This document shows, one piece after another, positions 4,480-56,697 of a stretch of DNA of 56,697 nucleotides. Within the stretch, counting starts at the first letter, position 1; each line of letters opens with the position of its first letter. Source of the stretch: a virus. The stretch lies in the UHGV virus genome UHGV-0866312; one strand, written 5' to 3'. The notes beneath the pieces are model-generated. The model was given only the letters and a program-made list of their open reading frames with translations. It was not told the DNA's origin and searched no databases. A program made the translations under genes and the position numbers.

Positions 4480-4559
4480 TTAATTATATGATGGTGTCTA
4501 CTAAATGGTTATATTAGTGGACACTATCAGCATTATAGAGTATGATAGAGGTAGGATTT

Positions 4560-5439: not shown

Positions 5440-6030
5440 ATGAATAAGGCTTATATGAGATTATCACAAAAGGACAGCATTAAAAATGGCAATGGCTTTG
5501 ACAGGCAAAAGCATTTATTAAAGGATATAGAAATAGATACATGGTATCAAGATGTTATTAGTGGTGCTAAAAGAAATAGACCACAGCTAGATAAGATGCT
5601 GGAAGAGTTAGAGGCTGGGGATATTGTTTATATACCAGCTATTGACAGGTTATCAAGAAGTACAAAAGACCTTTTAGAAATTGTAGAGATAATTAAAAAT
5701 AAGGGTGCTTACTTAGTTAGCATTAATGATACATGGTTAGATACAAGGGCTAGTAACCCTATGTCAGATTTCCTTTTGACTGTTATGGGGGCTATGGCAC
5801 AGCTAGAGAGGGATATGATAGCTAAAAGAATTAAGCAAGGTGTAGAAAATGCTATAGAGCAAGGCAAGGTTATAGGCAGACCACCAGTAAACAGTGACAG
5901 AGTATTAGAGGCTGTCAAGATGTATAAAGAGACTGGTAAGAGCATGAGGGAAATAGAGGCTATTACAGGGGTCAGTAAATCAGCAATATCAAAAGCATTA
6001 AAGAAAAATAAGACAATTTCAGAGCAGTAA
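5440..6030 (+). CDS. small serine recombinase (resolvase/invertase family) with C-terminal HTH
   Basis: YMRLSQKDS with a catalytic Ser context, DRLSRS, and the C-terminal HTH SMREIEAITGVSKSAISKAL. 196 aa. Confidence 0.7.
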   Translation: MNKAYMRLSQKDSIKNGNGFDRQKHLLKDIEIDTWYQDVISGAKRNRPQLDKMLEELEAGDIVYIPAIDRLSRSTKDLLEIVEIIKNKGAYLVSINDTWLDTRASNPMSDFLLTVMGAMAQLERDMIAKRIKQGVENAIEQGKVIGRPPVNSDRVLEAVKMYKETGKSMREIEAITGVSKSAISKALKKNKTISEQ

Positions 6031-6035
6031 ATAAA

Positions 6036-6066
6036 GGGGGTAGCTTTAATAGCTACTCTTTTTTTG
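6036..6066 (+). terminator. rho-independent terminator followed by class 2 element TTGTGCCTATTAGG
   Basis: gggggtagctttaatagctactc followed by TTTTTTT. Confidence 0.65.
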
Positions 6067-6098
6067 TGCCTATTAGGTGTAAGCTAGGAGGTGCAAAA

Positions 6099-17678: not shown

Positions 17679-17761
17679 TTAAAAACTATTAGAGGGCAGA
17701 AATGCCCTTTATTTTTATGCCTTTTACTGGGTCATTTATTGACTATGTAGGAGGTGAGTAC

Positions 17762-24500: not shown

Positions 24501-27500
24501 TAAAGATAATAGTATTACTAGTGATGAGAGCAATGATGTAAATGCTAAATTTACTGCATATTGTTCAGCTTTATGTGAGGTTAAATGTGCTTTACAAACT
24601 GCTATAGATGCCATTGCTGATGCTAAAAGTAATGGTGCTTATACTAATGCTAAAAAATATGCTGATGGATTAAAAACTACTACAGATAAAAGTATCAGTG
24701 ATGTTAATAGTGCTGTAGGTACTTTAAGAAAGGATGTAACTACTACTATTAAAGATGGCATAGTATCAGAGGCAGAGGCTTTAGCAATTAAGTCTAATAT
24801 TCAAGTATTAAACAGTGAGAAAGCTGATATTGATAAAGAATTTACTACTATCTATGCAAATGGTAATTTAACTGGTACAGCTAAAACAGACCTTAACAGT
24901 AAAAAGACAGCTTATAATACAGCACACACAAATTTAATAAATAGTATTAACAATGCTACTGCTGATGGTAAAGTAACTACTACTGAAAAGGCTGATATAG
25001 ATAGCAAGTTTACTGCTTATAGCACTGCTTTAGCTAACTATAAAGGTGCTTTACAAACTGCTATAGATAATATTGCTAGTAATAAAAGTAATACTGTTTA
25101 CACTAATGCTAAGAAGTATGCAGATGATTTAAAAACTGCTACAGACAAAAGCATAAGTGATGTTAATAGTGCTGTAGGTACTCTAAGGAAAGATGTTACT
25201 ACTAGTATTAAAGATGGTATTGTATCAAATGCAGAGGCATTGTCTATAAAGAGTAATATAGATGTTTTAAACATGGAGAAAGCTGATGTAGATAAGGAAT
25301 ACACTACTTTGTATGCTAATGCTAACTTGACTGGTACACCTAAAACAGAATTATCATCTAAGAAAACTGCTTATAATACAGCACATACAAATTTAATAAA
25401 TAGTATCAATAATGCTGTTAAAGATAATGTAGTTACTACTGCTGAAAAGACAGATATAAATAGTAAAATGACTGCTTATTCTACTGCTTTAGGTAACTAC
25501 AGGGTAGCTGTACAAAATGCTATTGATGCTATAGCTAGTAATAGGGCTAATAGTGCTGTAAATAATCTTATTGTAGGTGCAAGAAATTTAGCATTAAAGA
25601 CTAGTAATGACTGGGTATCATTTACTAACTTTACTGGTATAACTAATGACTGTAGAGGTGGTTATACTGTTTTAACTGATGGATTAAATGTAGGTGATAG
25701 CATCACTATTACCTTTGAGTATAAGTTAGAAAATATGACTTATTCTACTGCTGGTAATATAAGATTTTATCTACAAGGTAGTGGGGATGTTACAGCATGG
25801 AATAGTGGTAGTTTTCCATCATCACCAGTACCTAGTATGGTAGCTAATGCTACTGGTACAGTAAGCTACACAGCTAAAATAACTGCTGACCATTTAAAAA
25901 ATAGTAGCTGGGGTACAAACTTTAGAACAGATTACATTACTGGGGGTAAAATTTCAGTAAGAAGAGTAAGAGTTACAAAGGGTAATAAGCAAATTGACTG
26001 GACACCAGCACCAGAGGACACTACAAGTGCTATTAACAATGCTGTAAAAGATTTAGCTAGTCTAAATGATGTAACTACAGCCCAAAATAATGCAGTTATA
26101 AAAGCAAATATTGAGGCTATTAAACAGACTTATTCTGCTGTTAAGACTGAATATAACAATAACTTACAACAAGCCACAACAACTTACAATAACAGTTACC
26201 TAGCTGGTACTGCTAAAAGTTATCTTAATAGTGCTATTACTGGGTATAAAGAAAAATTTAGTGCTGTTACTACTGCTTACAATAATATTGTTACTGATAA
26301 TACACTATCATCTAGTGAGTTATCAGCATGGAATACAGCTATAACAAACTTACAAAGCTATACTACTACACTAGCTTTAAGATTATCAGAGGCTATAAAC
26401 TATATTAATACTGCTGTGTATAATGCTAGTAAAAAATATACTGATGAAACTATTCCAGATAAATTGACTGGATATGCTAAAACTAGCTATGTAGATGATG
26501 CAAAGGCACAAGCTATTAAAGATGCAAAAGCTGGCATGGTATCTACTAGTGATTTACAAGTAAATAATAGTGAGATACTAATGACTACATCTAAGATGGG
26601 TCAGTACAATATGCTTAAAAATACAGACTATAGAAATGGTACAGACCATTGGAGTAAATATAGTGTACCTAGTGGAGTAAACTGGGATATAGTAACTGAT
26701 ACTGATGCCTGTGTTATTGCTGGTGAAAAAGCTTTTAGAGTAGGCTTTACATCAAGCACAGCAAATAAATATGTAAGTTATGGTATGTCACAAACAGTAG
26801 CATTAAAGGCTGGTGTATCTTACACATTAAGCTACTGGTTAAATACTCTTAATGCTGAAGCAAGGGTTAGTATTTTTAACCCACCTTTTAGTAGTGAAAT
26901 AGCATCTAAGACATATGGTGCTACTAATGGTAACAACAAAAGGGAGACACACAAGTATGACAGCATAACATTTACACCTACTATATCTGGTAGCTATCAC
27001 ATTGTATTTACTATCAATAAGGCTATTAATGCTAGCTGGGCTGGTATATTTGTAACTAAGCCTATGCTATGTACTGGTATCAATGCACAAGCATGGACAG
27101 GTCACCCAGATGAGATATATGTAGGGGTAGTTAGTATTACAGAGGAACATGGTATTAAGGTAGAGCATAGTGATGCAAATACCTACAGTAGTTTAGATGC
27201 TACTGGCTTAAAGATTTGGGAATATAACAATGATAACCCTGTGGCATCTTTTGGTGATGGTAATACTGCTTATATAAGCACTGTTAATACAAAGAAATTA
27301 ATTGCTGATAATGTTACACCTACAATAACAGTAGATGGTAACTATTCTTATTACTTTAGCAATACTGGTAGTGGTGACTATTCTGGTAAAGATAGTAGTA
27401 ACTGCTGTGCTGGGTTTACAGGTGCTATGGCTAGAATGTGTGATGATTTTGGTATAGATAGGACACACACAAAGGGTAATTTTTTCATGCAAGGTAATGG

Positions 27501-28521
27501 TACTTTAAATTTCTTTTGTCATGGTAGTGTACATGATGAGGATTTTTATTTAGAAAATATCTATGGTACTGCTAAAATTACTTTTGGTTTTGTAAAAGAA
27601 TTAACTATGTCTGGCTCATTTAAAATGCTTAATATTCAATGTCCATTTAGAATGTTTGGTAATAGAAGTAGCAATAATGTTAATGAGGGTTGTTTATTCA
27701 AAAGAAATGGTAGTCAAGATGGTATTTATTTAAGGCACTGTAGTTCAGTAGAGATAGAGGGATTTAGATTTAATAGTACAAGTAATGCATCACAATCTGG
27801 TATAGCCTGTGTAGATGGTACTGTAGCATGGATAACAAACTGTGATGTATATAACTACAAGTGGGGTATATATATTGCTAGACAGGCTACTGTATATATG
27901 AAAGATAATAGAGGTACAAGTGGTTCTTGTGGGACTTATTTGCCAGATAGAGGTATATGTGTTTATGGTGGTACTATATGTGCTGGTAACATTAATAACA
28001 CTGTACCTTACAATATTTTTATTGCTAATAACAGTGCTGTTAGATTAACAGATACAGGAGGGTCACCAGCTTATTCATTACAAGGTGCAAAGCCTATAAC
28101 ATCACAAACAATTACTAACTCATTCTCACCTACTGCTTATAGATGTGTGGCTAATTACACTATTGATGGTGAGATAAGACAGGGTAGCTGGAATGGTGCT
28201 ACTAGTGACTGGACTGGGTATATTTACTTTGGGTCAGCACCACAAAGCTTTTTAAGTGGTGGGTCAAACTCATCAGCACAAATATACCTACAAAGAAGAG
28301 GTACAGCACATGGTTACTATTCAGCAGTACCAGTAATTATAGCTGGCACTAATGTAGGCTCATTGTCAATAGGTGAGGGTAAATGGTTTAGCTTACCATC
28401 ATCAGCACTATCAGCTATTGCTAGTGGTAACCCTGTGACATTAACAGGTAAAGGTAACTCACAATATATTAAATTTGAAAGTAATTCAAGTGTTAGAATA
28501 ACAACAACAAAAAGGGTATAG
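21574..28521 (+). CDS. giant tail fiber/Tal-like receptor-binding protein (2315 aa)
   Basis: Position after Dit. Central coiled-coil region with 3 tandem ~153-aa repeats. Two jelly-roll CBM-like modules (...IDWTPAPED). C-terminal right-handed beta-helix-like region with NxxG/Cys-rich repeats. Confidence 0.8.
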   Translation: MFYLYEGGGNKPKLLGVLDTDVDSTESCLVLSAIAKHKVNSISTLDIAIPADHSLNSLITDTTDIVFFDTYGEPQEYHITEIEDIHDDSLDRYLYCEHSAIELNDSIITETMSNASSGDPADYLAFILSFTRWQVGTVDEGVYNSKWNGINDLVGKNCMVALGEFISKYNCEVSYRFTIKDNVITGRYVDIKKQVGNDYGKRFSYEKDINSLKRTVDASGVKTAIFPRIAVNNSSEESGESSTSYITIANVTWNTANGNPVNKPLGDVILVNSDISYKYQRLDKATGKLIHRVMYAEWTQETATDANDLINQAWLILRANSTPKINYECNASDLYLLSGKDVNLSHEHVKLGDRAVILDKAFKPEIRVKSRIMEMTEDLLDPTANNFVFGNTKATLSTSSVDQQQSLEEQLHQLENKLPEYTLPFQNGKPYYDAIKQELKDEFVTSSGYVMIENDNGLWVFDRPADLQPTKAVIVKGGNIGLAKWNTQTSSWELGTFINGTSVNADFITTGHLSGDVIEGHSITADHLTVEAIEFIKTGLASEDDLNKAVEDITKVKDDITGINNEITNINKTIDEAIKGTLDASKLNIINNNLLLLDAEYNNLIARANSVYNNQYLIGQNKVDLDTARTAYKTAYTEYTTYVNTIIADKLVTDAEYTEYVQKTTTYNTALVAINTAIEDANTDIINNVYAQARQGLVTTADLEVNNQSVIASAKLGMVSTGDMTEAIQMATKDLVATGELQEIIDKATSDLTTTDELTAEITKAKIASIQETFKPITTEYKGNLQQANTIYANANLTGTAKTNLNTAKTDYTSKYNALATAIKNIVDNNSIAETYMTAYNTALANLQTATTTLGQRLQEAIASINNAIYSNAKNYADGLKTTIDASIKDVADSVGGLREEVTTSFKDGIISQAETIALQKQIDLLTKEKNSIDTEFTTVYENTDLTGTPKTDLNTKKTAYNTAHTNLITAINTAIKDNSITSDESNDVNAKFTAYCSALCEVKCALQTAIDAIADAKSNGAYTNAKKYADGLKTTTDKSISDVNSAVGTLRKDVTTTIKDGIVSEAEALAIKSNIQVLNSEKADIDKEFTTIYANGNLTGTAKTDLNSKKTAYNTAHTNLINSINNATADGKVTTTEKADIDSKFTAYSTALANYKGALQTAIDNIASNKSNTVYTNAKKYADDLKTATDKSISDVNSAVGTLRKDVTTSIKDGIVSNAEALSIKSNIDVLNMEKADVDKEYTTLYANANLTGTPKTELSSKKTAYNTAHTNLINSINNAVKDNVVTTAEKTDINSKMTAYSTALGNYRVAVQNAIDAIASNRANSAVNNLIVGARNLALKTSNDWVSFTNFTGITNDCRGGYTVLTDGLNVGDSITITFEYKLENMTYSTAGNIRFYLQGSGDVTAWNSGSFPSSPVPSMVANATGTVSYTAKITADHLKNSSWGTNFRTDYITGGKISVRRVRVTKGNKQIDWTPAPEDTTSAINNAVKDLASLNDVTTAQNNAVIKANIEAIKQTYSAVKTEYNNNLQQATTTYNNSYLAGTAKSYLNSAITGYKEKFSAVTTAYNNIVTDNTLSSSELSAWNTAITNLQSYTTTLALRLSEAINYINTAVYNASKKYTDETIPDKLTGYAKTSYVDDAKAQAIKDAKAGMVSTSDLQVNNSEILMTTSKMGQYNMLKNTDYRNGTDHWSKYSVPSGVNWDIVTDTDACVIAGEKAFRVGFTSSTANKYVSYGMSQTVALKAGVSYTLSYWLNTLNAEARVSIFNPPFSSEIASKTYGATNGNNKRETHKYDSITFTPTISGSYHIVFTINKAINASWAGIFVTKPMLCTGINAQAWTGHPDEIYVGVVSITEEHGIKVEHSDANTYSSLDATGLKIWEYNNDNPVASFGDGNTAYISTVNTKKLIADNVTPTITVDGNYSYYFSNTGSGDYSGKDSSNCCAGFTGAMARMCDDFGIDRTHTKGNFFMQGNGTLNFFCHGSVHDEDFYLENIYGTAKITFGFVKELTMSGSFKMLNIQCPFRMFGNRSSNNVNEGCLFKRNGSQDGIYLRHCSSVEIEGFRFNSTSNASQSGIACVDGTVAWITNCDVYNYKWGIYIARQATVYMKDNRGTSGSCGTYLPDRGICVYGGTICAGNINNTVPYNIFIANNSAVRLTDTGGSPAYSLQGAKPITSQTITNSFSPTAYRCVANYTIDGEIRQGSWNGATSDWTGYIYFGSAPQSFLSGGSNSSAQIYLQRRGTAHGYYSAVPVIIAGTNVGSLSIGEGKWFSLPSSALSAIASGNPVTLTGKGNSQYIKFESNSSVRITTTKRV
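24187..25565 (+). repeat. three tandem ~459-bp repeats inside the tail fiber gene
   Basis: Repeat starts at 24187, 24646 and 25106 (aatgctaaaaaWtatgcWgatg...). Partial additional copies lie at about 23880-24180 and 26100-26440. Confidence 0.75.
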
Positions 28522-28845: not shown

Positions 28846-29094
28846 GTGGATGGCAATTTAGTAGATTACAAAATACAAGAGCATGATAAGAGATTAGATG
28901 AGCATGATGTGAAATTCAAAGAGCAAGATGAAAAAATTGTAATGCAAGATAAAAGTATCATTAAGCTTGCATCTAGTATAGATAATTTGACTAATAAATT
29001 GAGCAGTGGATTTGGTTTAATTAAATGGTTTACTGGGATATTCCTAGTAGAGTTAGTGGGATTTTTCTTTTTTATGATTAAATCATTATTTTAG
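28846..29094 (+). CDS. XhlA-like hemolysin/holin accessory protein (coiled coil + C-terminal TM)
   Basis: Charged coiled-coil N-terminus and a single C-terminal TM helix (FTGIFLVELVGFFFFMI). Confidence 0.55.
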   Translation: MDGNLVDYKIQEHDKRLDEHDVKFKEQDEKIVMQDKSIIKLASSIDNLTNKLSSGFGLIKWFTGIFLVELVGFFFFMIKSLF

Positions 29095-29392: not shown

Positions 29393-30085
29393 ATGGCTTA
29401 TAATCAAGTTAATATTTCAAGTGGTCATAGCATTAATTGTCAAGGTGCTAGTGATATTGTAAATGAGGTAACAGAGGCTAGAAAGGTGGTAGATACAGTT
29501 TATCAAATGGTTAAGGAATGTGGTAAGGGTGCTTATAAGTACCATGATACAGCATCATCATCTAGTCAAAATTTAGCTAATATAGTAAACTGGCATAATG
29601 CTTTTAAGGATGGTATAGATGTATCAGTGCATTTTAATGCCTATCAACATACTAGCAATGGTATGGGTGTAGAGGTGCTTTATTATGGTGGTAGCACACA
29701 AGCTTTAGCAAGTCAAATGGCTACAGCTATATCTAATGCAAGTGGCTTAAAAAACAGAGGTGCAAAGCAAAGGACTGGATTATACTTTTTGAGAAACACT
29801 GTTAAACCAGCTATCTTAATTGAGGTATGTTTCTGTGATAGTGTCAAAGATGTTGAATTATATAGAGCAAAATACAATGAAATTTGTAAGGCTATATGTA
29901 AGACATTAATAGGTGTAGCACCAGCAGATAAAACACCTACACAACCATCTAAGCCAGTAACACCACAAGGAGATACATTATATAGGGTAGTAGCTGGAAG
30001 TTATAAAAATAAAGCTAATGCAGAGGAACAAGTAAAGAAACTGAAAGCAAAGGGCTTTGATGCTTTTATAATGGCAGTTAAATAG
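29393..30085 (+). CDS. endolysin: N-acetylmuramoyl-L-alanine amidase (amidase_2/PGRP-like) + C-terminal SPOR domain
   Basis: The SPOR-like C-terminus YRVVAGSYKNKANAEEQVKKLKAKGFDAFI, plus position after the holin. Confidence 0.65.
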   Translation: MAYNQVNISSGHSINCQGASDIVNEVTEARKVVDTVYQMVKECGKGAYKYHDTASSSSQNLANIVNWHNAFKDGIDVSVHFNAYQHTSNGMGVEVLYYGGSTQALASQMATAISNASGLKNRGAKQRTGLYFLRNTVKPAILIEVCFCDSVKDVELYRAKYNEICKAICKTLIGVAPADKTPTQPSKPVTPQGDTLYRVVAGSYKNKANAEEQVKKLKAKGFDAFIMAVK

Positions 30086-30121: not shown

Positions 30122-30463
30122 TTTGCCCCTACAATGCCCCTAGAGGCTTTTATAACAGCTTTTATTATAGAGTAGACTTACTAGACCTTTAAATTAAAGT
30201 CTATTCCTAGAGGCTGTTAGGGCTATTTATAAAGGTGGTTTACAATATTTTTCTAGTAAAACAAGAATGGCACTATCACTGGCTTATAAAAAATAGAGTT
30301 ACATATTAATTCAGCAAAGAGGCTGATAGGTTAAAAGGCTATTGTTATGTATACCATATGTCACAGAAAATAGGACAGGTGCATATATTAATAGGTGAGG
30401 ATATAACTGCTATAACTTCTTATATCTTTTATATATAACAACAAAGTAACTGTTAAATAATAG

Positions 30464-30504
30464 GTAAAAATATTGACCTAAAGATAATAACTATATATAA
30501 CTAT
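30464..30504 (+). promoter_or_regulatory. near-consensus sigma-A-type promoter (TTGACC-N17-TATAAC); copy 2 of the 41-bp exact repeat
   Basis: Identical to 1025-1065. Its upstream ~60 bp (ctgctataacttctt...) is also similar to 961-1024. Confidence 0.65.
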
Positions 30505-30608
30505 TTATTTTGTATTATCTTACAGTAAAATATTTTACCTTTATTAAAAATGTCACAGTATCAAATAAAATGCTTATTTAATAGTAAAGAATGATTGAGG
30601 TGATATTT

Positions 30609-30950
30609 ATGAATAAACTTAATTTATTTTCTTACTATAAGAATGTTGATAATACAGAGGTAAATGGTGTGCTAGTAAATAGTAAACTTTTTGAAAGTGG
30701 TGCTTTAGGTGAGATAGGTGTTAATAATTTTATAGTGCTTTGTTGTATCTATTCATACAAAGATAATTCTAACATTAGCCATATTAGTATTAGGAATATA
30801 GCTAGTTTAACAGGATTTTCAACAACTACAGTACAAAAATGTATTAAAGAGTTAAAAAATTATGGCTATTTCACAGTTAAACAAGTTAAAGAAAAAGGGT
30901 CAAACTTCATACAAAATGTATATGACTTTACTGAATGTAAGGGGGCTTAA
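30609..30950 (+). CDS. winged-helix protein, paralog of the replisome organizer N-terminal domain
   Basis: NSKLFESGALGEIGVNNFIVLCCIYSY...TTTVQKCIKELKNYGYF aligns with 30953 (KDLFESGAIKELGINKFTVLSCIY...PTVIKCIKELENDGYF). Confidence 0.55.
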   Translation: MNKLNLFSYYKNVDNTEVNGVLVNSKLFESGALGEIGVNNFIVLCCIYSYKDNSNISHISIRNIASLTGFSTTTVQKCIKELKNYGYFTVKQVKEKGSNFIQNVYDFTECKGA

Positions 30951-30952
30951 AT

Positions 30953-31678
30953 ATGCAAGAGTTAAACAGATATATAGAGTTTAATAGTGTAGGTAATATT
31001 ATTGGTGCTGGTGTGAAACTTAATAAAGACTTATTTGAAAGTGGGGCTATTAAGGAATTAGGTATTAATAAATTCACTGTATTAAGCTGTATCTACTGCT
31101 TTATCAATAGTGATTATGAAAGTTACCCTAGTATTAGGACAATAGTAAAACTTACAGGTATTTCAAAGCCTACAGTAATAAAGTGCATCAAGGAATTAGA
31201 GAATGATGGTTATTTCAAAGTTAAAAACATCAAGGAAAATGGTGCTATATATATTCACAATGTTTATGAATTTCCAGCACCTAGTAAAGTTGATACAAAG
31301 GGATATGATGAGCCAGATAATGAAAAGGCTTTGACAGCTAGAGACTACATTAGCTTATGGTGTAGCAAATATAGTGAGGCTTTTGGACACAGCTATACAC
31401 CTAACTATAGGAAAGATTGTAGTATGTTTAAAAATAAGATAATGGCTAATTATGAGCAAGCTGACATTATTAAAATGTTAGATATTCTATTCACTCAATA
31501 CAGTAGAAAGTGGAGCAAGAAAGGATATGAGTACCCCACTATAGGTGCTTTTTGTTCATGGTTATATCAAGAATGTTATAGAGAAATTCAGCTAAACAAA
31601 GATAAAGAGGAAAGAATGAAAGAAGTAGCAAGAAAGGCAGAGGATAATGATACCTTTGATAAATTTATGAATATGTAG
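30953..31678 (+). CDS. phage replisome organizer/replication initiator (N-terminal winged helix)
   Basis: Phage_rep_org_N-like N-domain and position before the helicase loader. Confidence 0.55.
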   Translation: MQELNRYIEFNSVGNIIGAGVKLNKDLFESGAIKELGINKFTVLSCIYCFINSDYESYPSIRTIVKLTGISKPTVIKCIKELENDGYFKVKNIKENGAIYIHNVYEFPAPSKVDTKGYDEPDNEKALTARDYISLWCSKYSEAFGHSYTPNYRKDCSMFKNKIMANYEQADIIKMLDILFTQYSRKWSKKGYEYPTIGAFCSWLYQECYREIQLNKDKEERMKEVARKAEDNDTFDKFMNM

Positions 31679-41303: not shown

Positions 41304-41903
41304 ATGGCAAATGTGATTAATAACAAAGATAGATTAGCAATATTTGAAAAGGAATTAGGCTTTTACCACAGTAATAATATCAGAGAATTTGCAAAGCTAT
41401 TAGTAGCTGAATTACCTAACTATTTCTTTTTTGTAGCCAGCAGTGCTACAGGTAAATATCACCCAGAATATGCAAATGGTGAGGGTGGCTTAGTAAGACA
41501 TACACAGGCTGGTATGAGAATAGCTAAAAGCTTATTTACTATTAGTGACTTTACTATAGAGGAAGAGGATTTAATTTTATTGGCTTTACAATTTCATGAC
41601 AGCATTAAAAGGGGTAGAGGCATTGACAGTGGACATACAGTGTATTTGCATCCTATCTATGCTAGTAGATTTATTATGCAGTATTACTATGACCATATTG
41701 AAATAACAAAGACACTTATTACTGGTGAGGATTTAGAAATAGTTTGTAGAGCAATACAGAGCCATATGGGGCAATTCAATAAGGATGGTGAGGGTTACCC
41801 TATTCTACCTGTACCAGTTACACCACTACAAAAATTTGTACATGAATGTGATTATTTAGCATCAAGGGCATTTTTAGAGGTGAATTTTAATAAAAATGTG
41901 TAA
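41304..41903 (+). CDS. HD-domain phosphohydrolase
   Basis: H...HD motif (KYHPEY...LQFHDSIKRG). Confidence 0.6.
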   Translation: MANVINNKDRLAIFEKELGFYHSNNIREFAKLLVAELPNYFFFVASSATGKYHPEYANGEGGLVRHTQAGMRIAKSLFTISDFTIEEEDLILLALQFHDSIKRGRGIDSGHTVYLHPIYASRFIMQYYYDHIEITKTLITGEDLEIVCRAIQSHMGQFNKDGEGYPILPVPVTPLQKFVHECDYLASRAFLEVNFNKNV

Positions 41904-42414
41904 TGAAGTGTGGAAAGATATTCCTAACTATGGTGGAGTATATCAAATTAGCAATTTAGGAAGAGTTAGGAGTTTTAAGTATGGTAGAGAGCATATATTA
42001 AAATCTTATATAAATAGTACTGGTTATCTATATGTAACATTAATGAAAGATAATAATAGGCATCAAGTAGCTATACATTATCTATTAGCATATTGTTTTA
42101 TTGTCTTTGTGCCACAAAAAGGTGTTAGATATGCTGTAAACCATAAAGATGAAGTTAAGACAAATAACATTTTGAGTAATTTAGAAATTATAACAGAGGT
42201 AGCAAATTTGAATTATGGAACAGCTAGAGAAAGACAGAGATTATCTGTTAGTAAACCAGTTAAATGTATTGAAACTGGTATTTCTTATAAATCAGCTAAA
42301 GAGGCAGAGAGGCAAACAGGAATATATCAAGGTAATATAAATCAATGTTGTAATGGTAGCCATAGGAGAAAAACTGCTGGTGGTTATCATTGGATATTTA
42401 TAAGTGAGGTGTAG
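41896..42414 (+). CDS. HNH homing endonuclease (paralog of 2633-3151)
   Basis: MCNEVWKDIPNYGGVYQISNLGRVRS; NHKDEVKTNN; a C-terminus about 60% identical to the first HNH. Confidence 0.8.
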   Translation: MCNEVWKDIPNYGGVYQISNLGRVRSFKYGREHILKSYINSTGYLYVTLMKDNNRHQVAIHYLLAYCFIVFVPQKGVRYAVNHKDEVKTNNILSNLEIITEVANLNYGTARERQRLSVSKPVKCIETGISYKSAKEAERQTGIYQGNINQCCNGSHRRKTAGGYHWIFISEV

Positions 42415-43396: not shown

Positions 43397-44080
43397 ATGA
43401 ATAAAATAGAATGTATCAGAGAATTTAGAGAGTGCTTTACTGTAGGTAAAAGCTATGAGGTAAAAGTTAATCATTACTGGGGTGGTGTAACTGTAAAAGA
43501 TGATGATGAGGATTTATATTATATCTGTAATGCTGATTTAGATAAGTATTTCTGTAGTAAGGATAGCTGTAAAGACTGTGATAATTCAACCTGTGACCAT
43601 TACCATGAGCCAGTAAATAACAGCATCCATATGAGAATTAAGTATTTTGATGGTGCTACAAAGTTAAAAAAGATTAGTAAAGGTAATTGGATAGATGTGT
43701 ATGCTAACAAAGATATGATTATCTATGAGGGTGAGAGGGCTATGATACCTTTGGGCTTTGCACTTGAATTACCAGAGGGCTATGAGGGGCATTTAGCACC
43801 TAGAAGTAGCACATTCAAAAGCTGGGGTATTATTCAGACTAATTCAGTAGGTGTGGTAGATGATAGCTATATAGGTGATAATGATGAGTGGCACATGCCT
43901 GTATATTGTTTAGAGGGCAAGGATGCTACAGAGGATGGCTTAATATTCACTGAAATTAAAAAGGGTGACAAAATAGGTCAATTTAGAATTATAGAAGTTA
44001 TGCCAGAGATTACATTAGAAGAGGTGGAGGTGTTTGGTAATGAGGACAGAGGTTCTTTTGGAAGTACTGGAACAAGATAG
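43397..44080 (+). CDS. dut: dUTPase with N-terminal Cys-rich extension
   Basis: dUTPase motifs PRSSTFKSWGI and VGVVDDSYIGDNDEW. The N-terminal ~75 aa carry CxxC...CxDC...C.H.H. Confidence 0.75.
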   Translation: MNKIECIREFRECFTVGKSYEVKVNHYWGGVTVKDDDEDLYYICNADLDKYFCSKDSCKDCDNSTCDHYHEPVNNSIHMRIKYFDGATKLKKISKGNWIDVYANKDMIIYEGERAMIPLGFALELPEGYEGHLAPRSSTFKSWGIIQTNSVGVVDDSYIGDNDEWHMPVYCLEGKDATEDGLIFTEIKKGDKIGQFRIIEVMPEITLEEVEVFGNEDRGSFGSTGTR

Positions 44081-44468
44081 AGGATGCTTTATTCCTCTTG
44101 ATTGCTTAGATGTTAAAGGTGACATCTATTTGATAAATGAATTTGGTGATATTTATTCATTAGTAAGGAATAGGCTGTTATCTAAATGTAGTGACAAAGA
44201 TGGTTATAAATATACCACCTTACAAAATAGTAAAGGAGATAGATGGTGCTATAGAGTGGCTACTCTTGTAGCATTAACATTCATAGGTAAGCCACCAGAT
44301 GATATGATTGACCCTACAATAGACCATATAGACAGTAATAAAGTTAATAACTATTACAAAAATTTAAGATGGATGGAAAGGGGCAAAAATTCATCTATTA
44401 GAAAGAAATTTCCACCTAGAGATAATTTGGGTAGATTTTGCAAAAAGAAAAAGCAATTAATTGAGTAA
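44040..44468 (+). CDS. HNH endonuclease
   Basis: IDHIDSNKVNNYYKNLRWMERGKN HNH motif. GGAGGTG RBS before ATG 44040. Confidence 0.7.
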   Translation: MRTEVLLEVLEQDRGCFIPLDCLDVKGDIYLINEFGDIYSLVRNRLLSKCSDKDGYKYTTLQNSKGDRWCYRVATLVALTFIGKPPDDMIDPTIDHIDSNKVNNYYKNLRWMERGKNSSIRKKFPPRDNLGRFCKKKKQLIE

Positions 44469-45103: not shown

Positions 45104-45727
45104 ATGCTAGGTAAGAAAACTAGAAAGCTACTAGCTAGTATATTGCTGGGGCTTACTGTAGGTGGCTTATTTGGTGGGCTATTTGTAAAGGCTAATAACC
45201 CAGAGCCACAGCAGTACCACACAGTACCTATAGAGCAACAAGTACAGGTAGACTACACTGATACAGTGCTATCAGAATTAACATCTATCAATAAGCTAGA
45301 AATATATCAAGCTTACTTAAAGAATACTGTGACCATTAAGAAAGGCTTTGATAATAAATTCTTTAGGAATAATAAAAGCATAGATATGTATGCCACAGGT
45401 ATCTATAAGCTAGATTTAAATAACATTGATAAAGATTTAGTTATGAGTGGTAACAGTGTGGTAGTAATAGCATCTATTGAGCATGATGTAATTGTACATG
45501 AGAATAAGTTTAAATTTACAGAGGAAAAAGGCTGGCTTACCTTTGGTGATGTAGAAGTAACACCAGAGGAAATGACTGCTATAACCCAGCAGACTAAAGA
45601 CCAGATGACCAGTAAGATGCTATCAGATGAATACTTAGAAACTGTTAAGGAAAAAGCAACATACATTATTGTAGATAGATTAAGAGATATTAACCCAGAA
45701 TTTAATATAAAGGTGGTATGGAAATGA
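45104..45727 (+). CDS. membrane-anchored DUF4230-like protein
   Basis: N-terminal TM LLASILLGLTVGGLFGGLF, about 200 aa. Confidence 0.45.
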   Translation: MLGKKTRKLLASILLGLTVGGLFGGLFVKANNPEPQQYHTVPIEQQVQVDYTDTVLSELTSINKLEIYQAYLKNTVTIKKGFDNKFFRNNKSIDMYATGIYKLDLNNIDKDLVMSGNSVVVIASIEHDVIVHENKFKFTEEKGWLTFGDVEVTPEEMTAITQQTKDQMTSKMLSDEYLETVKEKATYIIVDRLRDINPEFNIKVVWK

Positions 45728-46347
45728 TTAAAAGGACTTTAGCAATTATGTTATTAACAGGGGCTATAGCAAGCTGTGTACCAGCTAATATTACTGCTGT
45801 AGCAGATTATAGACAGCCTACAATTATAATGGATATGGCACACAGAGATACTATTAATGACTGTGGGGCATCCTATCAGATATGGAATGAGAGGGATATA
45901 GTAAACCCTATTACAGAGAGGGTGGCAAATATATTAGTCAATAAAGGCTTTAATGTACTGCTTACTAGGGAATATGATAAGCCTATCAGTATTAATGAGA
46001 GAATAGCATTAGCTAATAGGACTGATTATGACTACTATATATCTATTCATGCTAATTCATGTGAAGAGGCTAACAAAGGTACTGGTATTGAGGCTTTTTA
46101 TAATGGTAAAGGGGCAGAGTTATTAGGTGAGACTATGTTAAATGCCTATAATGAGGAATTTGGGTCAGTGATTAGAAGAAATGAAGAGACACCCTATTAT
46201 ACAAGGCATATAGATAATAGTGTTTTATTAGAAATAGGCTTTATAAATAATGACAATGATAGAAAGATAATGTTAGAAAATCAAGAGGAAATAGCACAGC
46301 TAATGGCTGATACAATCATACAGCATTATGCTGAACAAACTAAATAG
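45718..46347 (+). CDS. lipoprotein N-acetylmuramoyl-L-alanine amidase (amidase_3, CwlD/AmiC-like)
   Basis: Signal peptide with lipobox-like IASC. Amidase_3 motifs MDMAHRD...ERVANIL...YISIHANS...GIEAFY. Confidence 0.65.
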   Translation: MEMIKRTLAIMLLTGAIASCVPANITAVADYRQPTIIMDMAHRDTINDCGASYQIWNERDIVNPITERVANILVNKGFNVLLTREYDKPISINERIALANRTDYDYYISIHANSCEEANKGTGIEAFYNGKGAELLGETMLNAYNEEFGSVIRRNEETPYYTRHIDNSVLLEIGFINNDNDRKIMLENQEEIAQLMADTIIQHYAEQTK

Positions 46348-46424: not shown

Positions 46425-48749
46425 ATGACAGCATTGAAATTAAATTTAAGTATGGATGCTGATAAGAAGAAAGAGGCTAGAGTAAAAGAGGCTGTAAAAA
46501 AGGTAAAGGCATCAGATTATGAGCCTACATGGTCAGAGGTGTGGAATGGCTACACTAACCCTATTAGTGGCACTGCTAAAAAAGGTATATTCCAGCTTAA
46601 AAATACTGCTAATGATTTAAAGAAATTAAAAGCAGTAAAGAAAGCTATTGAAAGTGAAGAATTAGGCACTAATGTTACTAGCTTAAAGAAATTCAGTAAA
46701 ACACATGCACTAGGCTTATATGCAGTTTTAGTAGAGCAACAAAAAGAGGCTACTATAAAAGAAATGATAGAGAATAAGCCAGATAATTACCACCTAGTAG
46801 ATAATACTGTATCTTTATTTGATATGTGCCAAAAGCTAAATGATGAGGAAATAATAGCACTAGATACAGAGACTACAGGGGTAGAGCATAAAGATGTAAC
46901 AGTAGGTATGTCCTTAACATTACCAAAGGCTGACCAACACTATTATATTCCATATAGACATACTACAGGTGAGAAACAATTAGCACCAGAGATAGTATTT
47001 AAAGCAGTTAAGCCACATTTAGAGAGGCTAGACCTAGTATTACACAATGCTAAATTTGACTATAAAATGTTAATTAAAGATGGCATTGAGTTAAAGAATA
47101 TCAAGGCAGATACTATGGTATTAATGCACATTTTAAATGAGAATGAAATGTCATTAAAATTAAAAGATTTGGCTAATAAATATGGTCACAAATTTGGTTA
47201 TGAGCATCCTAGTATGACTTATGAGGAATTGTTTGGTAATGGTGGCTTTGAGGCTACACCACTTGAAATAGGGCATATCTATGCATGTAAAGATACACAT
47301 TTAACATGGCTATTATATCAATGGCAATTAAGTTATTTAGATAAGATGCCAAAAGTAAAAAGTGTATTCTTTGATATAGAAATGAAACTAATGCCAGTAT
47401 TATTAAAAACTGAATTAAGGGGCTTTGATGTAGACCTAGATTATTCAGAGCAATATAAAAAGCAGTTATCTGGTGAGATAGCTGAAATGGAAAAGAAACT
47501 AGATGAATTTTTCCCAGATATAAACCTAAATAGTAATCAGCAATTAGCTTATTATTTATTTGAGGTAATAGGGCTGGATAGAGTAAAAGGTGACAGTGTA
47601 GATAAAGAGGTATTAAATGTACTAGCTGATGACTATGAGGGTATCAAAGTATTATTAGAGTACAGAAAATTAACAAAATTATTAAGCACCTACATTGAGC
47701 CACTACCTAAAATGGTGTGGGAGGATGGCTTTTTACATGGTGAGTTAAATCAGATAGGTACTAAAACAGGTAGATTAGCAAGTAATAACCCTAACCTACA
47801 AAATATACCCCCACAGGCTAGAAAGATATTTGTAGCACCAAAAGGTAAATTATATATGTCATGTGACTTTAGTAAGATGGAGGTATTTTTAGCATGTGAG
47901 TTAAGTGATGACCCTAACTTATATGAGGCTTTACATGGTGGTCATGATGTGTATAGTGTGCTGGCATCAAAGTCATATCACTTACCTATAGAGCAATGTG
48001 GTGATGGTACTATTTACAGAAAGCACAGTAAAACAGCATTACTAGGATGTATGTATGGTGCTTTACCTTTTACTATAGCTAAACAAGTAAATGTATCTGT
48101 AGAAGAGGGAGAGGAAATTTTAAATAGCTTTTTTGATGGTAACCCAGTCTTAACACAGTCTATCCATAATTGTCATGACCTTGTAGCTAAACAAGGATAT
48201 GTAGAGACTATTACAGGTAGAAAAAGAAGATTTCCAGAGATACCAAAGCTATGCAAGCTGTTAGATAAAATCAATAGAGAAATTAAGAGAATGACAGGTA
48301 AGACTGGTGATGAGTGGTGTAAGGAATATAACAGCATATTCCAGATACCTAAAAAGCTACCTTATGAGGTTAAGCAACAATATCACAGCACTAATAAAAC
48401 TATCCAGAAAGCCTTTAGACAGTCATTTAATGCTACTGTACAAGGCAGTGGTGGTGATATATGCAAGATTGCTTTAATAAACTTGCAAAACTACTTTGAT
48501 GAGTTAAATAAGGACTTACCAGAGTGGAAACACTATCATATTATTTCATCTATTCATGATGAGCAGTTAATGGAAGTACCAGAGGATATACCAGCAGAGG
48601 TAATAAAGCAAATTGATTACATCATGTGTAACACTATGCCTTTAAAGGTGCATATGAAAACAGATATAGAGTTTTATAAAAGATACTACCATGATGGTAA
48701 ATCTATAGCACAGGTATTAGCTGGTGACCTACCAAAAGCTGACCTTTAA
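46425..48749 (+). CDS. family A DNA polymerase with 3'-5' exonuclease domain
   Basis: Exo I ALDTETTG. Motif A CDFSKMEV, motif B RKHSKTALLGCMYG, motif C SIHDE. Confidence 0.9.
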   Translation: MTALKLNLSMDADKKKEARVKEAVKKVKASDYEPTWSEVWNGYTNPISGTAKKGIFQLKNTANDLKKLKAVKKAIESEELGTNVTSLKKFSKTHALGLYAVLVEQQKEATIKEMIENKPDNYHLVDNTVSLFDMCQKLNDEEIIALDTETTGVEHKDVTVGMSLTLPKADQHYYIPYRHTTGEKQLAPEIVFKAVKPHLERLDLVLHNAKFDYKMLIKDGIELKNIKADTMVLMHILNENEMSLKLKDLANKYGHKFGYEHPSMTYEELFGNGGFEATPLEIGHIYACKDTHLTWLLYQWQLSYLDKMPKVKSVFFDIEMKLMPVLLKTELRGFDVDLDYSEQYKKQLSGEIAEMEKKLDEFFPDINLNSNQQLAYYLFEVIGLDRVKGDSVDKEVLNVLADDYEGIKVLLEYRKLTKLLSTYIEPLPKMVWEDGFLHGELNQIGTKTGRLASNNPNLQNIPPQARKIFVAPKGKLYMSCDFSKMEVFLACELSDDPNLYEALHGGHDVYSVLASKSYHLPIEQCGDGTIYRKHSKTALLGCMYGALPFTIAKQVNVSVEEGEEILNSFFDGNPVLTQSIHNCHDLVAKQGYVETITGRKRRFPEIPKLCKLLDKINREIKRMTGKTGDEWCKEYNSIFQIPKKLPYEVKQQYHSTNKTIQKAFRQSFNATVQGSGGDICKIALINLQNYFDELNKDLPEWKHYHIISSIHDEQLMEVPEDIPAEVIKQIDYIMCNTMPLKVHMKTDIEFYKRYYHDGKSIAQVLAGDLPKADL

Positions 48750-48799
48750 TGTCACAAATAATACCCCCTAGAGTATTTATTACCACAGGGGGTGTGCAT

Positions 48800-49141
48800 G
48801 TGAGTTATGAAAAAGTAATGTCAATGACAATTTATCAAGGGATTAAACAAAATATAGCTAGTGGATGCTGGTATATAGATATAGATAAAGGCATTGTAAT
48901 GAACAGTAAAAGAATGAAACCAATAACAGCAGTAAATAGCAGTGGCTACTATGTCATAAGGGGTGCTGATAAGGTGCTGTATTATATGCACCAGATTATA
49001 GCTGTAGCTGGTGGCTTAAATCCAGTAGGGTATCAAGTAGACCACAAGAATAGAAATAGGCTAGATAACAGATTTGATAATTTAAGATGTGCCACACCAG
49101 CAGAGAATTTAGCTAATAGAGGTGGTATGTATGAAATGTGA
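48800..49141 (+). CDS. HNH endonuclease (probable GTG start; listed ORF starts inside the GTCACA element)
   Basis: VDHKNRNRLDNRFDNLRCATPAENLANRG HNH motif. Confidence 0.65.
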   Translation: MSYEKVMSMTIYQGIKQNIASGCWYIDIDKGIVMNSKRMKPITAVNSSGYYVIRGADKVLYYMHQIIAVAGGLNPVGYQVDHKNRNRLDNRFDNLRCATPAENLANRGGMYEM

Positions 49142-51395: not shown

Positions 51396-51719
51396 ATGTT
51401 TATGGATTATAACAGCTATGACATTAATGATATATACAGAGCCTTAAAGTGCAAAGATGCTTATAAGGGTATAGCTGGTGCTACTGGTGATTATACTTTC
51501 AGTGATATTGTCATGGATGCAGAAACCATTATAAAAGAGGCTAACTTAACTGAAAGACAAAGACTAGTAATTAAGCTTTACCATGAGGATGATTTAACAT
51601 TAGCTACTATTGGTGAAATGCTAGGCATCACACATCAAGCAGTTAAAGACTGTTTAAATCAAGCTAGTAAAAAGATTAATAAAGTATTGGAGGGGTGGAA
51701 AGATGGCAGTACAATATAG
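51396..51719 (+). CDS. sigma-70 region 4-containing transcription regulator (ArpU/RinA-like late activator candidate)
   Basis: ERQRLVIKLYHEDDLTLATIGEMLGITHQAVKDCLNQASKKI is a classic sigma70 r4 HTH. Confidence 0.55.
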   Translation: MFMDYNSYDINDIYRALKCKDAYKGIAGATGDYTFSDIVMDAETIIKEANLTERQRLVIKLYHEDDLTLATIGEMLGITHQAVKDCLNQASKKINKVLEGWKDGSTI

Positions 51720-52919: not shown

Positions 52920-53141
52920 TACAGAGGTACATGAGGTAGGTAAGCCAAATGTAAAAGAGTTAATTAAAAGGGTGCTAGAATTAATCTAGTGCCTTTTTTG
53001 TTGCCTATTTATCAAGGTTAGAGTAGTATACTAATAGATACCCCTACTTTATAAGGTGTTATGAATAGCATCTTATTTAGTGGGAGTGTCACAGAAACCT
53101 ATTACTGTGGGTATTTCCCTACTAGAAAGGATGTTTTTTGT

Positions 53142-54602
53142 ATGAGAAAAAAGTTATTACTTTATGCCAGAAAATCTAGGATTAAAAAGAATGAAATGTC
53201 ACTAGAGGCACAAGTAGAATTACTAATTAAATACTGTAATGACCATGACTATGACTATGTTATTTACAGTGAAGAGGGTAGTAGTGAAAACTGGGAAAGA
53301 CCAGAATTTCAGAAAATGATGGAAGAGGGTAAAAAAGGTATTTATGATGGTGTACTGGTAACAGTCACAGACAGAATAAGCAGAAAAGGACTAGTATGGT
53401 ATAGCTTTGTTGAGTATTGTTTAGACTATGGCTTATTATTATTCACACTAGATAAGATTTATGACTTTACTAATGATGATGATATTTTAGTTACTGGTAT
53501 TCAGTCAGAAATGAATAGTTTGTTTATGAGGGTCACAAAGAAGAAATTAAAAAGAGGGGTAGAGTTAGCTGTACAAAAAGGTATCTATATGGGTACTGTA
53601 CCTTTTGGATATACCAAAGATAAAAGCAAGCATCTTATACCAGACCCAGAGACAGCACCAGCAGTAAATATTATATTCAAAAAGTTTTTAGAGGGTTATA
53701 ATCAAGTACAGATAGCAGAATATTTGAATAACAGAGGTTATAAAACAATTGATGGTAATATCTTTACTAATGTAGCTGTAAGAGATATTTTAATGAATAT
53801 CACATATACTGGTAGCATCCTATGGAATGGCATTTTTGTTGCTGATGCACACCCAGCCTTAATAGATACAGAAACCTATAATAAGGTTAAAGCTATCAAG
53901 GATAAACAGAAAGCACCAGCAGAGTATAAAAAAGCTAAATACCCTTTGACTGGGCTTTTAAAATGCCATGAATGTGGTCAGACATTATCACTTAAAAGAG
54001 ATACTAAGAATAAGAAAGTATATGTTTCTAACTGTCTTAGGAGTGCTGTGTCTAGGAGTGAGGCAAAATTAAATAAAATCAAATGCACTACTAAGGGCTG
54101 TGATATGGCTAGATTATTACCTATAGTTTATGATGCCCTTAGAAAGCATATGATTAGTATAGATGAACAGATAGAGGCTGTATTATCAGATACTAACATG
54201 CTAATTGATGAAATAGCAACAGAAATGGAACAGCTAGAGCATAGAAAGGCTGAATTAATTAAACAAAAGCAAAGAATACAAAAGGGCTTTATTGCTGGCA
54301 TCTTATCAGAGGATGAGGCAAAGGAAGAAAAGAAAGACTGTGAAATACAGATAAATTCTGTAGATAATGAAATATTAATCTTAAAGAATAAAGATGTAAA
54401 AGGTGAGGTAAGCAAGCTAGAAAAAGTTAAACTGACAATAGAACAGCTTTTAACAGGGAATTTAAAGAATGAGGACAGCAATAGACTGTTAAAGAGTATT
54501 ATAGACCACATAGACTTTAAAAAGACTGAAAGAGACATTTACAACCATAAAGACCCAGATAAAAGGTATGCACCTGTAAAATTAACAATTCACTATAAGT
54601 AA
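53142..54602 (+). CDS. large serine recombinase (integrase family)
   Basis: N-terminal LLYARKSR...SLEAQ catalytic Ser region, recombinase domain, Cys-rich zinc module CHECGQ...C and a coiled-coil C-terminus. A GTCACA element at 53088 suggests the start at ATG 53142. Confidence 0.75.
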   Translation: MRKKLLLYARKSRIKKNEMSLEAQVELLIKYCNDHDYDYVIYSEEGSSENWERPEFQKMMEEGKKGIYDGVLVTVTDRISRKGLVWYSFVEYCLDYGLLLFTLDKIYDFTNDDDILVTGIQSEMNSLFMRVTKKKLKRGVELAVQKGIYMGTVPFGYTKDKSKHLIPDPETAPAVNIIFKKFLEGYNQVQIAEYLNNRGYKTIDGNIFTNVAVRDILMNITYTGSILWNGIFVADAHPALIDTETYNKVKAIKDKQKAPAEYKKAKYPLTGLLKCHECGQTLSLKRDTKNKKVYVSNCLRSAVSRSEAKLNKIKCTTKGCDMARLLPIVYDALRKHMISIDEQIEAVLSDTNMLIDEIATEMEQLEHRKAELIKQKQRIQKGFIAGILSEDEAKEEKKDCEIQINSVDNEILILKNKDVKGEVSKLEKVKLTIEQLLTGNLKNEDSNRLLKSIIDHIDFKKTERDIYNHKDPDKRYAPVKLTIHYK

Positions 54603-55962: not shown

Positions 55963-56208
55963 GTGAGTAAAAAGAAAAAGACAGCACCAGCAGTCATAGC
56001 AGATAATGAGCCACCATTAATAGTAAAGACTAAATGCAGAATGATGTATATAGATGTTAAAAGTGATATTCTTTTTGCTGATGACCATGTATATTATTAC
56101 AGCTATATAAATGGTAAATATAGAGTGTATGAGCATAAGCCAGACAGCAATAATAACAGCAAGTATGCAGAATTAGACTATAAGCATTTTCTAATATATT
56201 TCAAGTAA
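55963..56208 (+). CDS. small basic protein (GTG start)
   Basis: AAAGGGG RBS then GTG. Lysine-rich N-terminus. Confidence 0.4.
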   Translation: MSKKKKTAPAVIADNEPPLIVKTKCRMMYIDVKSDILFADDHVYYYSYINGKYRVYEHKPDSNNNSKYAELDYKHFLIYFK

Positions 56209-56223
56209 ATAAGAGATAGAGAG

Positions 56224-56260
56224 AGGTAATTACAGCTAACTAACTGTAGTTACCTTTTTT
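56224..56260 (+). terminator. rho-independent terminator
   Basis: aggtaattacagctaactaactgtagttacc followed by tttttt. Confidence 0.6.
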
Positions 56261-56261
56261 G

Positions 56262-56690
56262 CTGTTATTTCAGATAATGGCTACTGGTAATTAATGATTA
56301 ATGACAGTAAGACTTGCATTAATAAATAGGCTTTAAGCTATTAAGTAGCAAGGTAAATTTAAAGGTATTTGCAGTAGGTAATAAAAGGCTGTAAAGGCTG
56401 ATATATCAATGCTTTGGGGCAGTCTCATTAACAGATAATAATGTCAGATAATTAGCTTATATTTGTCTTTTAATAACTGGTAATAGGGCATAATTAATGC
56501 TATAAATAGCTGATAATTTACAGATAATTAAGCAGTTAAAATAGAATAATGTTACTGATAATTAAGCAGATATTGTAGCAGATAATGTATAGATAATAGG
56601 CTGTAATAGCAGATAATGTAGCCTATAGATAGCTTATAATAAGCTGATAGATAACTGATAATAAGCTGATAATTAACTGTAAATATTCCC
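56262..56690. repeat. iteron-like array: at least 13 copies of C(A/T)GATAAT in about 430 bp
   Basis: Copies include cagataatgg, cagataataatg, cagataattag, ctgataattta, cagataattaag, ctgataattaag, cagataatgtat, agataatagg, cagataatgtag, ctgatagataa, ctgataataag, ctgataattaac. Confidence 0.65.
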
Positions 56691-56697
56691 TTGCACC

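Follow-up and report, generated by a model that had tools for sequence, protein, structure and literature searches.

The virus genome UHGV-0866312 (56,697 nucleotides, read as one strand and hereafter called the window) carries at its right edge a dense array built on the 8-bp core CWGATAAT. Most of the array is a block of 22 units, each about 11 bp long, that are joined head to tail and point in the same direction, and on the circular map its last unit lies just upstream of an open reading frame (ORF 43–450) that sequence profiles and a predicted fold place in the phBC6A51/2AO9 family of small terminases (TerS). Dense, unidirectional arrays with different core motifs recur beside this TerS family in phages and plasmids of Clostridium and Bacillus. 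The reading that we favor, with a likelihood that we judge to fall slightly short of even, is that the array is a TerS recognition and packaging-initiation track, comparable to a pac site or to cosB, located where the early genes meet the late genes.

The abundance of the motif far exceeds expectation. In 5000 dinucleotide-preserving shuffles of the 436-bp region that contains the array (56262–56697), CWGATAAT appeared 0.05 times on average and at most twice, and GATAAT 0.5 times on average and at most four times; the native region holds 10 exact copies of CWGATAAT, every one on the + strand, and 11 of GATAAT. Given its density elsewhere in the window, CWGATAAT would be expected 0.155 times in this region (Poisson P = 2e-15), and no other 436-bp stretch of the window contains more than two. 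Across the whole window there are 30 exact copies, compared with 8.2 ± 2.8 in dinucleotide-preserving shuffles. An unbiased detector of 6-mer clusters ranked the array as the top single-strand cluster genome-wide, and it is the sole dense short-repeat cluster in non-coding DNA of the genome. A first-pass annotation of the window had described such an array at 56262–56690 and had named a permutation test that could refute it; the test bears out a genuine array, of a type that proteins bind. The accompanying count of at least 13 copies holds if cores with a single mismatch are included (15, comprising 10 exact copies and five that match at seven of eight positions) but not for exact copies.

Analysis of the spacing revealed a true repeat unit of 11 bp, TARCWGATAAT, whose copies follow one another head to tail. 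The distance from core to core is mostly 10–13 bp, so that the gaps of 3–6 bp noted in the first-pass annotation were about right, and it averages 11.1 bp across the last 19 consecutive units of the main block. Autocorrelation of the array peaks at lags of 11, 22, and 34 (z about 4), and Fourier power is maximal at 11.0–11.2 bp. The CWGATAAT core is preserved, whereas the bases between cores vary. The region as a whole contains about 24 phase-defined units, which fall into two clusters. The main array (56429–56687, + strand) comprises the 22 units mentioned above, with nine exact cores, four that match at seven of eight positions, and four that match at six of eight. A distal mini-cluster (56268–56291, + strand) includes CAGATAAT at 56271–56278 and CTGGTAAT at 56284–56291; the two clusters are separated by a repeat-free spacer of 137 bp (56292–56428). 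The array has a GC content of 29%, compared with 33% for the genome. A distant-mode similarity search with the array DNA against 50,697 phage records returned no match. We also considered an RNA gene and rejected this candidate, as the whole window contains no Rfam family and no tRNA.

The first-pass annotation had regarded the array as possibly truncated by the edge of the window. This proved not to be the case: the last unit ends at 56687, and a Logan contig designated L003 (ERR13984608, 3311 bp), which is 92% identical to the window, reads through the junction. In L003 the end of the window (...CCCTTGCACC) runs into its start (TACCTA...) with zero added bases, and the contig encodes a product identical to that of ORF 43–450. 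The continuity of L003 across the end and start of the window indicates that the window is the whole genome of a phage, either circular or circularly permuted, with the opening placed immediately ahead of the first gene. Its start matches the convention of shifting genomes so that they begin at terS (PMC8026635). All long ORFs of the window lie on the + strand, and on the circular map 52 bp separate the last array unit from the ATG of ORF 43–450. We found no backing for a fixed terminus in the contig ends: six assemblies of one relative break at differing positions, and the record of the relative pCPC216_2 ends inside a gene. Comparison of the array in the window and in L003 revealed unit-sized insertions or deletions (11 and 10 bp) together with point changes that create or destroy cores. 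L003 has one additional 11-bp unit in the distal mini-cluster, and the spacer is near-identical in the alignment of the two sequences.

ORF 43–450 (+ strand) matches Pfam family PF13022 (7e-25; 87.9 bits against a cut-off of 27.9) and three PHROG families of the terminase small subunit (best 6e-14). A profile of the ORF and its homologues identified PDB entry 2AO9, a phBC6A51 “phage protein” with nine chains (E = 1.3e-7). The AlphaFold (AF2) model of the product, which is only moderately confident (predicted local distance difference test score, pLDDT, 67.5), shows a helix-turn-helix (HTH) at residues 10–50 followed by a long helical hairpin. When this model was compared with the PDB by Foldseek, the best eight matches were all chains of 2AO9 (probability 1.0; template-modeling score 0.5–0.59), with Sf6 gp1 next as a weak match. 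Both the sequence and the predicted fold thus assign ORF 43–450 to the phBC6A51/2AO9 small-terminase family; 2AO9 itself has been treated as a nonameric small terminase (PMC7672466). In Bacillus mycoides pBWB403, a member of the same family lies directly upstream of the gene for the large terminase (terL), the canonical position of TerS. In the window, terL (6066–7826) is located 5.6 kb downstream of terS, and its product gives weak matches to the T7-type terminase. Single-protein searches of IMG/VR with the terS product and with the 81-amino acid protein described below yielded no relatives, and neither did a search of GTDB genomes with the terS alignment.

The array forms part of a compact cassette. 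The early region ends with a small basic, lysine-rich protein (55963–56208; 81 amino acids, pI 9.1, N-terminal KKKK) and a terminator-like hairpin (56219–56260, + strand; a 17-pair stem followed by a T run), both of which the first-pass annotation had recognized. The array follows, and then a putative promoter that spans the junction: a -35-like TTGCAC (56691–56697, + strand) and, after a spacer of 17 nucleotides, TAAAAA at 17–22. This weak promoter-like site was read by eye, falls below the threshold of the scanning tool on L003, and is offered as an inference only. The ribosome-binding site and terS come next, and a second terminator-like hairpin (439–468, + strand; GAAGAGG...CCTCTTC and seven T residues), detected in L003 and read from the window, overlaps the terS stop codon. 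With terminators on both sides, terS is a self-contained cassette. In a scan for sigma-70 promoters, matches were not above those in shuffled sequence, and the GATAAT cores themselves yielded several “-10” matches.

Homologues of the TerS (32–55% identity) were found in Logan/ENA contigs (L004–L011), IMG/VR contigs (L012–L014), metagenomes (L015–L017), phages FA67/FA70 and PK2, and the plasmid pCPC216_2; pBWB403 was reached through a terL match (37% identity), and its annotated TerS is of the same family. Four further lineages in this set have dense, unidirectional arrays of a short motif within about 2.3 kb of the TerS gene, and their core motifs differ. In L017 (and at the edges of L015, L005, and L011), ATACTGY occurs nine times on the + strand and never on the - strand, with spacings of 10, 12, 22, 24, and 34 bp. 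L014 contains AACWG, seven copies on the + strand and one on the - strand, spaced 11–13 bp apart. In pBWB403, 10 copies of TAAAT[GA] on the + strand and none on the - strand are spaced by 11, 11, 11, 10, 12, and 12 bp; this array is separated from terS, which lies about 2.1 kb downstream, by an integrase gene of opposed orientation. Clostridium phage FA67 has 10 copies of ACTGT on the + strand and one on the - strand, with a period of about 9.5 bp, downstream of terS. In every case the direction of the array is that of terS. The terS-side array came out on top of the unbiased 6-mer ranking in each of these loci; in the two complete genomes examined, the window and FA67, it did so across the entire genome.

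Dense arrays near terS are thus present in five lineages (window/L003, the L017 group, L014, pBWB403, and FA67) that span Clostridium and Bacillus. L012, L013, pCPC216_2, and PK2 have a conserved TerS and loose repeats only. The other neighbors of the arrays change from genome to genome: the gene upstream is not conserved, the 81-amino acid ORF occurs only in L003 among the relatives, an integrase intervenes in pBWB403, and the array of FA67 lies on the other side of terS, which leaves terS as the only constant neighbor. This pattern argues against the suggestion in the first-pass annotation that the 81-amino acid protein binds the array, since that protein is not conserved beside the arrays of relatives, whereas the TerS gene is. 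A packaging signal would be expected to lie beside terminase genes at the early/late junction, where the window array is found, and to accompany TerS independently of other genes, as the arrays of these five lineages do.

Additional copies of the motif, scored with a 14-bp matrix built from the array, are concentrated around terS. Four of the five best matches outside the array fall within 1 kb of it (55997 on the + strand, 97 on the + strand, 675 on the - strand, and 952 on the - strand; P = 8e-6), and the strong copies lie on both sides of terS. The copy TTACTGATAATGAA (97–110, + strand) is inside the 5′ part of terS. Two inverted copies from the matrix scan, TAACAGATAATGTA (675–688, - strand) and TAGCAGATAATATG (952–965, - strand; a member of repeat family D12), are located downstream of it. 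Downstream of terS there are also G-rich boxes of the type GGGTAC/GGGGG (530–720, + strand), with equivalents near terS in relatives, and within this region there is a second 11-bp tandem array, 4.3 copies of CAGTGAGGTAT (616–672, + strand). In the L017 group, G-rich boxes, along with CAG-type repeats, are located upstream of terS, and in L012, L013, pCPC216_2, FA67, and PK2 they are found downstream of it. The record of Bacillus phage PK2 (OM112210.1; L023 3880–3900 and L024 1–52) starts and ends in a run of more than 40 G residues, about 190 bp after a terS-like gene annotated as a TetR regulator; this run may be a sequencing artefact at a physical end or an expanded G-rich box and provides only a hint of a DNA end nearby. 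A Bacillus altitudinis plasmid (L026 1060–1260) contains an array of at least eight copies of GCCCCTATA.

These observations suggest a model in which the TerS encoded by ORF 43–450 would assemble as a nonameric ring like that of 2AO9, with the HTH domains displayed on its rim. Each HTH, spaced from the next by about one turn of DNA, would contact a single TARCWGATAAT unit, so that one ring would be wrapped by roughly nine units (about 100 bp) and the array of 22 would accommodate approximately two rings. A rough calculation is compatible with such a path: DNA running about 10 Å outside a ring 90 Å in diameter would travel about 345 Å; divided among the subunits of a nonamer, this gives 38 Å (about 11 bp) each, near the 11.1 bp measured in the array. 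The TerS–DNA complex would mark the DNA as that of the phage and recruit the large terminase (6066–7826) to cut nearby. The cut may fall in the G-rich boxes downstream of terS, beyond which lie the inverted motif copies at 675 and 952. Because the array abuts the weak promoter-like site of terS, its occupancy would probably also throttle terS transcription, as reported for gp1 of SPP1. It is possible, though on balance doubtful, that the array is a wrapping track coded in the sequence itself, in which each HTH of a nonameric 2AO9-type TerS would read one 8-bp motif, the array would provide about two rings of sites, and the motif would have diversified together with TerS (CWGATAAT, ATACTGY, CGNTAAATG, and ACTGT) across a family of phages and phage-plasmids of the Bacillota.

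Several points weigh against a packaging role. In SF6/SPP1, whose HTH-ring TerS is the best studied, the isolated DNA-binding domain (DBD) showed only weak binding to pac DNA, with no sequence specificity (PMC4737164), and the TerS of HK97 threads DNA through its channel instead of wrapping it (PMC11331095). Both the binding of TerS to the array and the start of packaging in this region are predictions from sequence. The distance between array and terS is not constant, being 52 bp in the window and about 2.1 kb in pBWB403, with the array of FA67 downstream; the 9.5-bp period of FA67 also departs from 11 bp. The four relatives with loose repeats retain TerS without a dense array. The separation of terS from terL by 5.6 kb, with a terminator of its own, is unusual for a terminase operon. 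Finally, because the motif copy at position 97 encodes a conserved LLIMK peptide, it may exist by codon coincidence; the terS homologues use other codons at this position.

Some of the alternatives tie the array to transcription or to mutation. The array might act as an operator or upstream element of the terS cassette, serving autorepression by TerS or another regulator and having no direct part in packaging. It abuts the putative promoter and the ribosome-binding site, terS is bracketed by terminators, and the SPP1 terminase reportedly represses its own synthesis, according to the title of Chai et al. 1997. We nevertheless consider this explanation improbable, as proximity to the promoter is not maintained in pBWB403, where the array is about 2.1 kb away and past the opposed integrase, or in FA67, where it lies downstream; moreover, 22 sites far exceed the needs of an operator, and the promoter-like matches do not rise above shuffled sequence. 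A general late-promoter element is argued against by the matrix scan of the window, in which no other late gene is preceded by the motif; for the same reason we rejected the array as a late promoter for the sigma-r4-like protein encoded at 51396–51719. The unit-sized insertions and deletions between the window and L003 indicate that replication slippage does occur here. It is quite unlikely that the array is merely a non-functional by-product of such slippage in an AT-rich intergenic region, given that the core is kept while inter-core bases vary, polarity is strictly confined to one strand, additional inverted copies lie nearby, and analogous arrays with different motifs exist in five lineages of Clostridium and Bacillus.

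The first-pass annotation had raised two further roles, an iteron origin of replication and a centromere-like partition site. We assign a low probability to an origin in this position, where the early region ends, with the HTH_36 proteins encoded at 30591–31678 or another phage initiator as its binder. Helically phased direct repeats are typical of origins, no other dense non-coding short-repeat cluster exists in the genome, and the array persists in the lytic-looking FA67, as expected of a core function. The replication module contains only scattered two-copy repeats, and no comparable array lies in or beside the initiator genes. Usual iterons are 17–22 bp long, however, and exceed both the 11-bp unit and its 8-bp core. 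The array is 25 kb from the genes for the initiator, helicase loader, and helicase; DnaA boxes are not enriched anywhere in the window and form no cluster; the adjacent DNA is not distinctly AT-rich, in view of the GC contents given above; and in relatives the arrays accompany terS and not the initiator gene. GC skew gives no signal and is uninformative as a test, because all genes lie on one strand and the skew is positive throughout the window. The origins of SPP1 consist of direct repeats together with an AT-rich element (PMC6316719). Two tandem paralogous HTH_36 initiator-like genes (30591–30950 and 30953–31678) are 50% identical over their first 108 residues and contain a 145-nucleotide direct repeat of 71% identity.

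The partition role was linked to the idea that the element could be maintained as a plasmid prophage. That idea has some basis in the family and is not supported in the window. The 55-kb Clostridium perfringens plasmid pCPC216_2 is syntenic with the window (terL 57.5% identical), and both it and pBWB403, also syntenic and listed as a “Group 2” putative plasmid prophage (PMC8026635), carry a gene for ParM/StbA that closely follows the one for the replication initiator. Among 30 early ORFs of the window, Pfam scans identified no ParM, ParA, TubZ, or ParB, and tblastn of the window with the ParM of both relatives gave nothing credible at the syntenic position or elsewhere. Three window proteins of 294, 297, and 81 amino acids have no solved relatives by sequence and lend no support to a hidden partition ATPase. 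The window does encode a large serine recombinase of 513 amino acids. A small resolvase had been taken as a further sign of plasmid life. This resolvase/invertase-type serine recombinase (5440–6030, 196 amino acids) has counterparts immediately upstream of terL in L016 and L017 (70–76% identity) and weaker homologues (24–30%) upstream of terL in L012–L014; in pCPC216_2, a gene for a “recombinase family protein” is located about 0.5 kb upstream of terL. Tied as it is to the position of terL, it is not a marker of plasmid multimer resolution. The lysogeny module itself appears to have been swapped between the window (53061–54602) and the plasmid relatives (L022 1148–2348; L027 27750–29065): the window has the large serine recombinase, which was not seen in the syntenic plasmid relatives, and no ParM, and the plasmids have ParM and a small ribbon-helix-helix-like protein after the initiator gene.

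A centromere role for the array is unlikely, and as the parC/parS-type partition site of a plasmid prophage we give it scarcely any weight. The resemblance is real, in that type II parC also has 11-bp unidirectional repeats in two clusters and two relatives are plasmids with ParM. Directly upstream of its parM promoter, pCPC216_2 contains a textbook parC-like array in which TATAGAAAA units recur every 11 bp and form two clusters that flank a hairpin (nine TATAGA copies; L022 930–1075, equivalent to 28929–29074 of the record). That plasmid also has a separate, loose repeat field on the terS side, so that the two elements are distinct, and the parM-side array has a different motif from that of the window. 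The window encodes neither a cognate partition NTPase with a centromere-binding protein nor any ParR-like protein, and its large serine recombinase suggests integration. In the isolated phage FA67, neither ParM nor a serine/tyrosine recombinase was detectable and there is no partition gene of any kind, yet this phage keeps an array close to terS.

The proposed packaging track can be compared with several known systems. In phage lambda, cosB consists of sites R1–R3 for gpNu1, and in phage P1, pac consists of seven hexamer repeats; both are short TerS-binding motifs repeated by the terminase cut and near terS, and those of P1 flank the cut on both sides. Lambda needs IHF, and P1 uses Dam methylation. 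The window array is similar in its repeated short motifs near terS, where binding is predicted, and differs in having 22 sites and not three to seven, ordered head to tail at one helical turn, an arrangement not found in lambda or P1. Type II parC, as in ParR/parC of plasmid R1, consists of clustered 11-bp direct repeats in one direction, with the DNA wrapped on an oligomeric protein scaffold. The array shares with R1 and with pCPC216_2 its 11-bp same-direction repeats in clusters; it differs in its motif, in its location beside terS and not a partition operon, and in that parM and parR are lacking. The SRL and SRR regions of T7 contain about 12 short imperfect repeats, 7-bp units with no assigned binder, in non-coding DNA that flanks the terminal repeat at the concatemer junction. 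They too are short-repeat arrays in non-coding DNA, and the TerL of the window is weakly T7-type, although the units differ in length and those of T7 flank a terminal repeat. The putative function of the array is analogous to that of SPP1 pacL/pacR, lambda cosB, and P1 pac, and its form to that of type II parC.

The closest parallel is the pac region of SPP1 and SF6 (pacL-pacC-pacR, recognized by a gp1 ring), in which repeats likewise occur upstream of and into terS. SPP1 pac overlaps the promoters of gene 1, its ribosome-binding site, and the part that encodes the DBD, and gp1 binds pacL and pacR (PMC6316719); the overlap with the terS promoter and ribosome-binding site has a putative counterpart in the window. 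Further points in common are a TerS of the HTH-ring type, some 100 bp of DNA proposed to wrap around it, and autoregulation (PMC6316719, PMC4737164); for the window, the ring, the wrap, and autoregulation are predictions. The differences are that SPP1 relies on a few box a/b/c repeats, intrinsic bending, and a DBD without sequence specificity, whereas in the window an explicit 8-bp core is repeated about 22 times, once per turn; that terS of the window is not adjacent to terL; and that its TerS is of a different sequence family (2AO9/PF13022).

Other features of the genome are recorded here. A near-identical element of about 45 bp with the look of a strong promoter (TTGACC...TATATAAC) occurs at 1024–1070 and 30463–30510, preceding the genes that start at 1240 and the replication module, respectively; pCPC216_2 has an analogous duplicated element (L021 about 2640–2700 and L022 about 1–110). 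A 298-amino acid protein (4542–5438) with an above-threshold match to an alpha-amylase catalytic domain and a 294-amino acid ORF (3595–4479) are conserved just downstream of terS in L004, L016, and L017. Four scattered homing-endonuclease-like genes of the HNH/NUMOD type (2624–3151, 41896–42414, 44034–44468, and 48749–49141) are present, and the first resembles HNH genes of Enterococcus phages at the DNA level (about 76%). The region 3120–3503 encodes a stand-alone DNA-ligase N-terminal (Nlig-Ia) domain protein. An ORF of 2315 amino acids (21574–28521) contains 2.6 copies of a 459-bp (153-amino acid) tandem repeat at 24369–25543, and the 989-amino acid ORF upstream of it (17702–20671) has 33- and 66-bp periodic repeats at 19899–20196. 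There are two genes for N-acetylmuramoyl-L-alanine amidases, one with a SPOR domain (29393–30085) and one amid the replication and nucleotide-metabolism region (45718–46347).

How small terminases select viral DNA is a long-standing open question, for which wrapping and threading models have each been put forward; the TerS proteins with HTH rings that have been studied so far exhibit little binding specificity in vitro (PMC4737164, PMC7672466, PMC11331095). We found no published account that links a dense array with helical phasing to TerS proteins of the 2AO9 family. For annotation, our analysis suggests a rule: in this family of Clostridium and Bacillus phages and phage-plasmids, 11-bp arrays may be of the terS-side type or parC-like and next to parM, and the two should not be confused when plasmid prophages are called. 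If TerS indeed binds the array, the phage would provide an explicit natural substrate, about 22 motifs at one per turn beside a TerS family with a nonamer crystal structure, which would make the wrapping model directly testable. Should the array be a sequence-coded wrapping track, as considered above, it would constitute the first natural example of a genome that spells out, in its own DNA, the debated “nucleosome-like” recognition by TerS.

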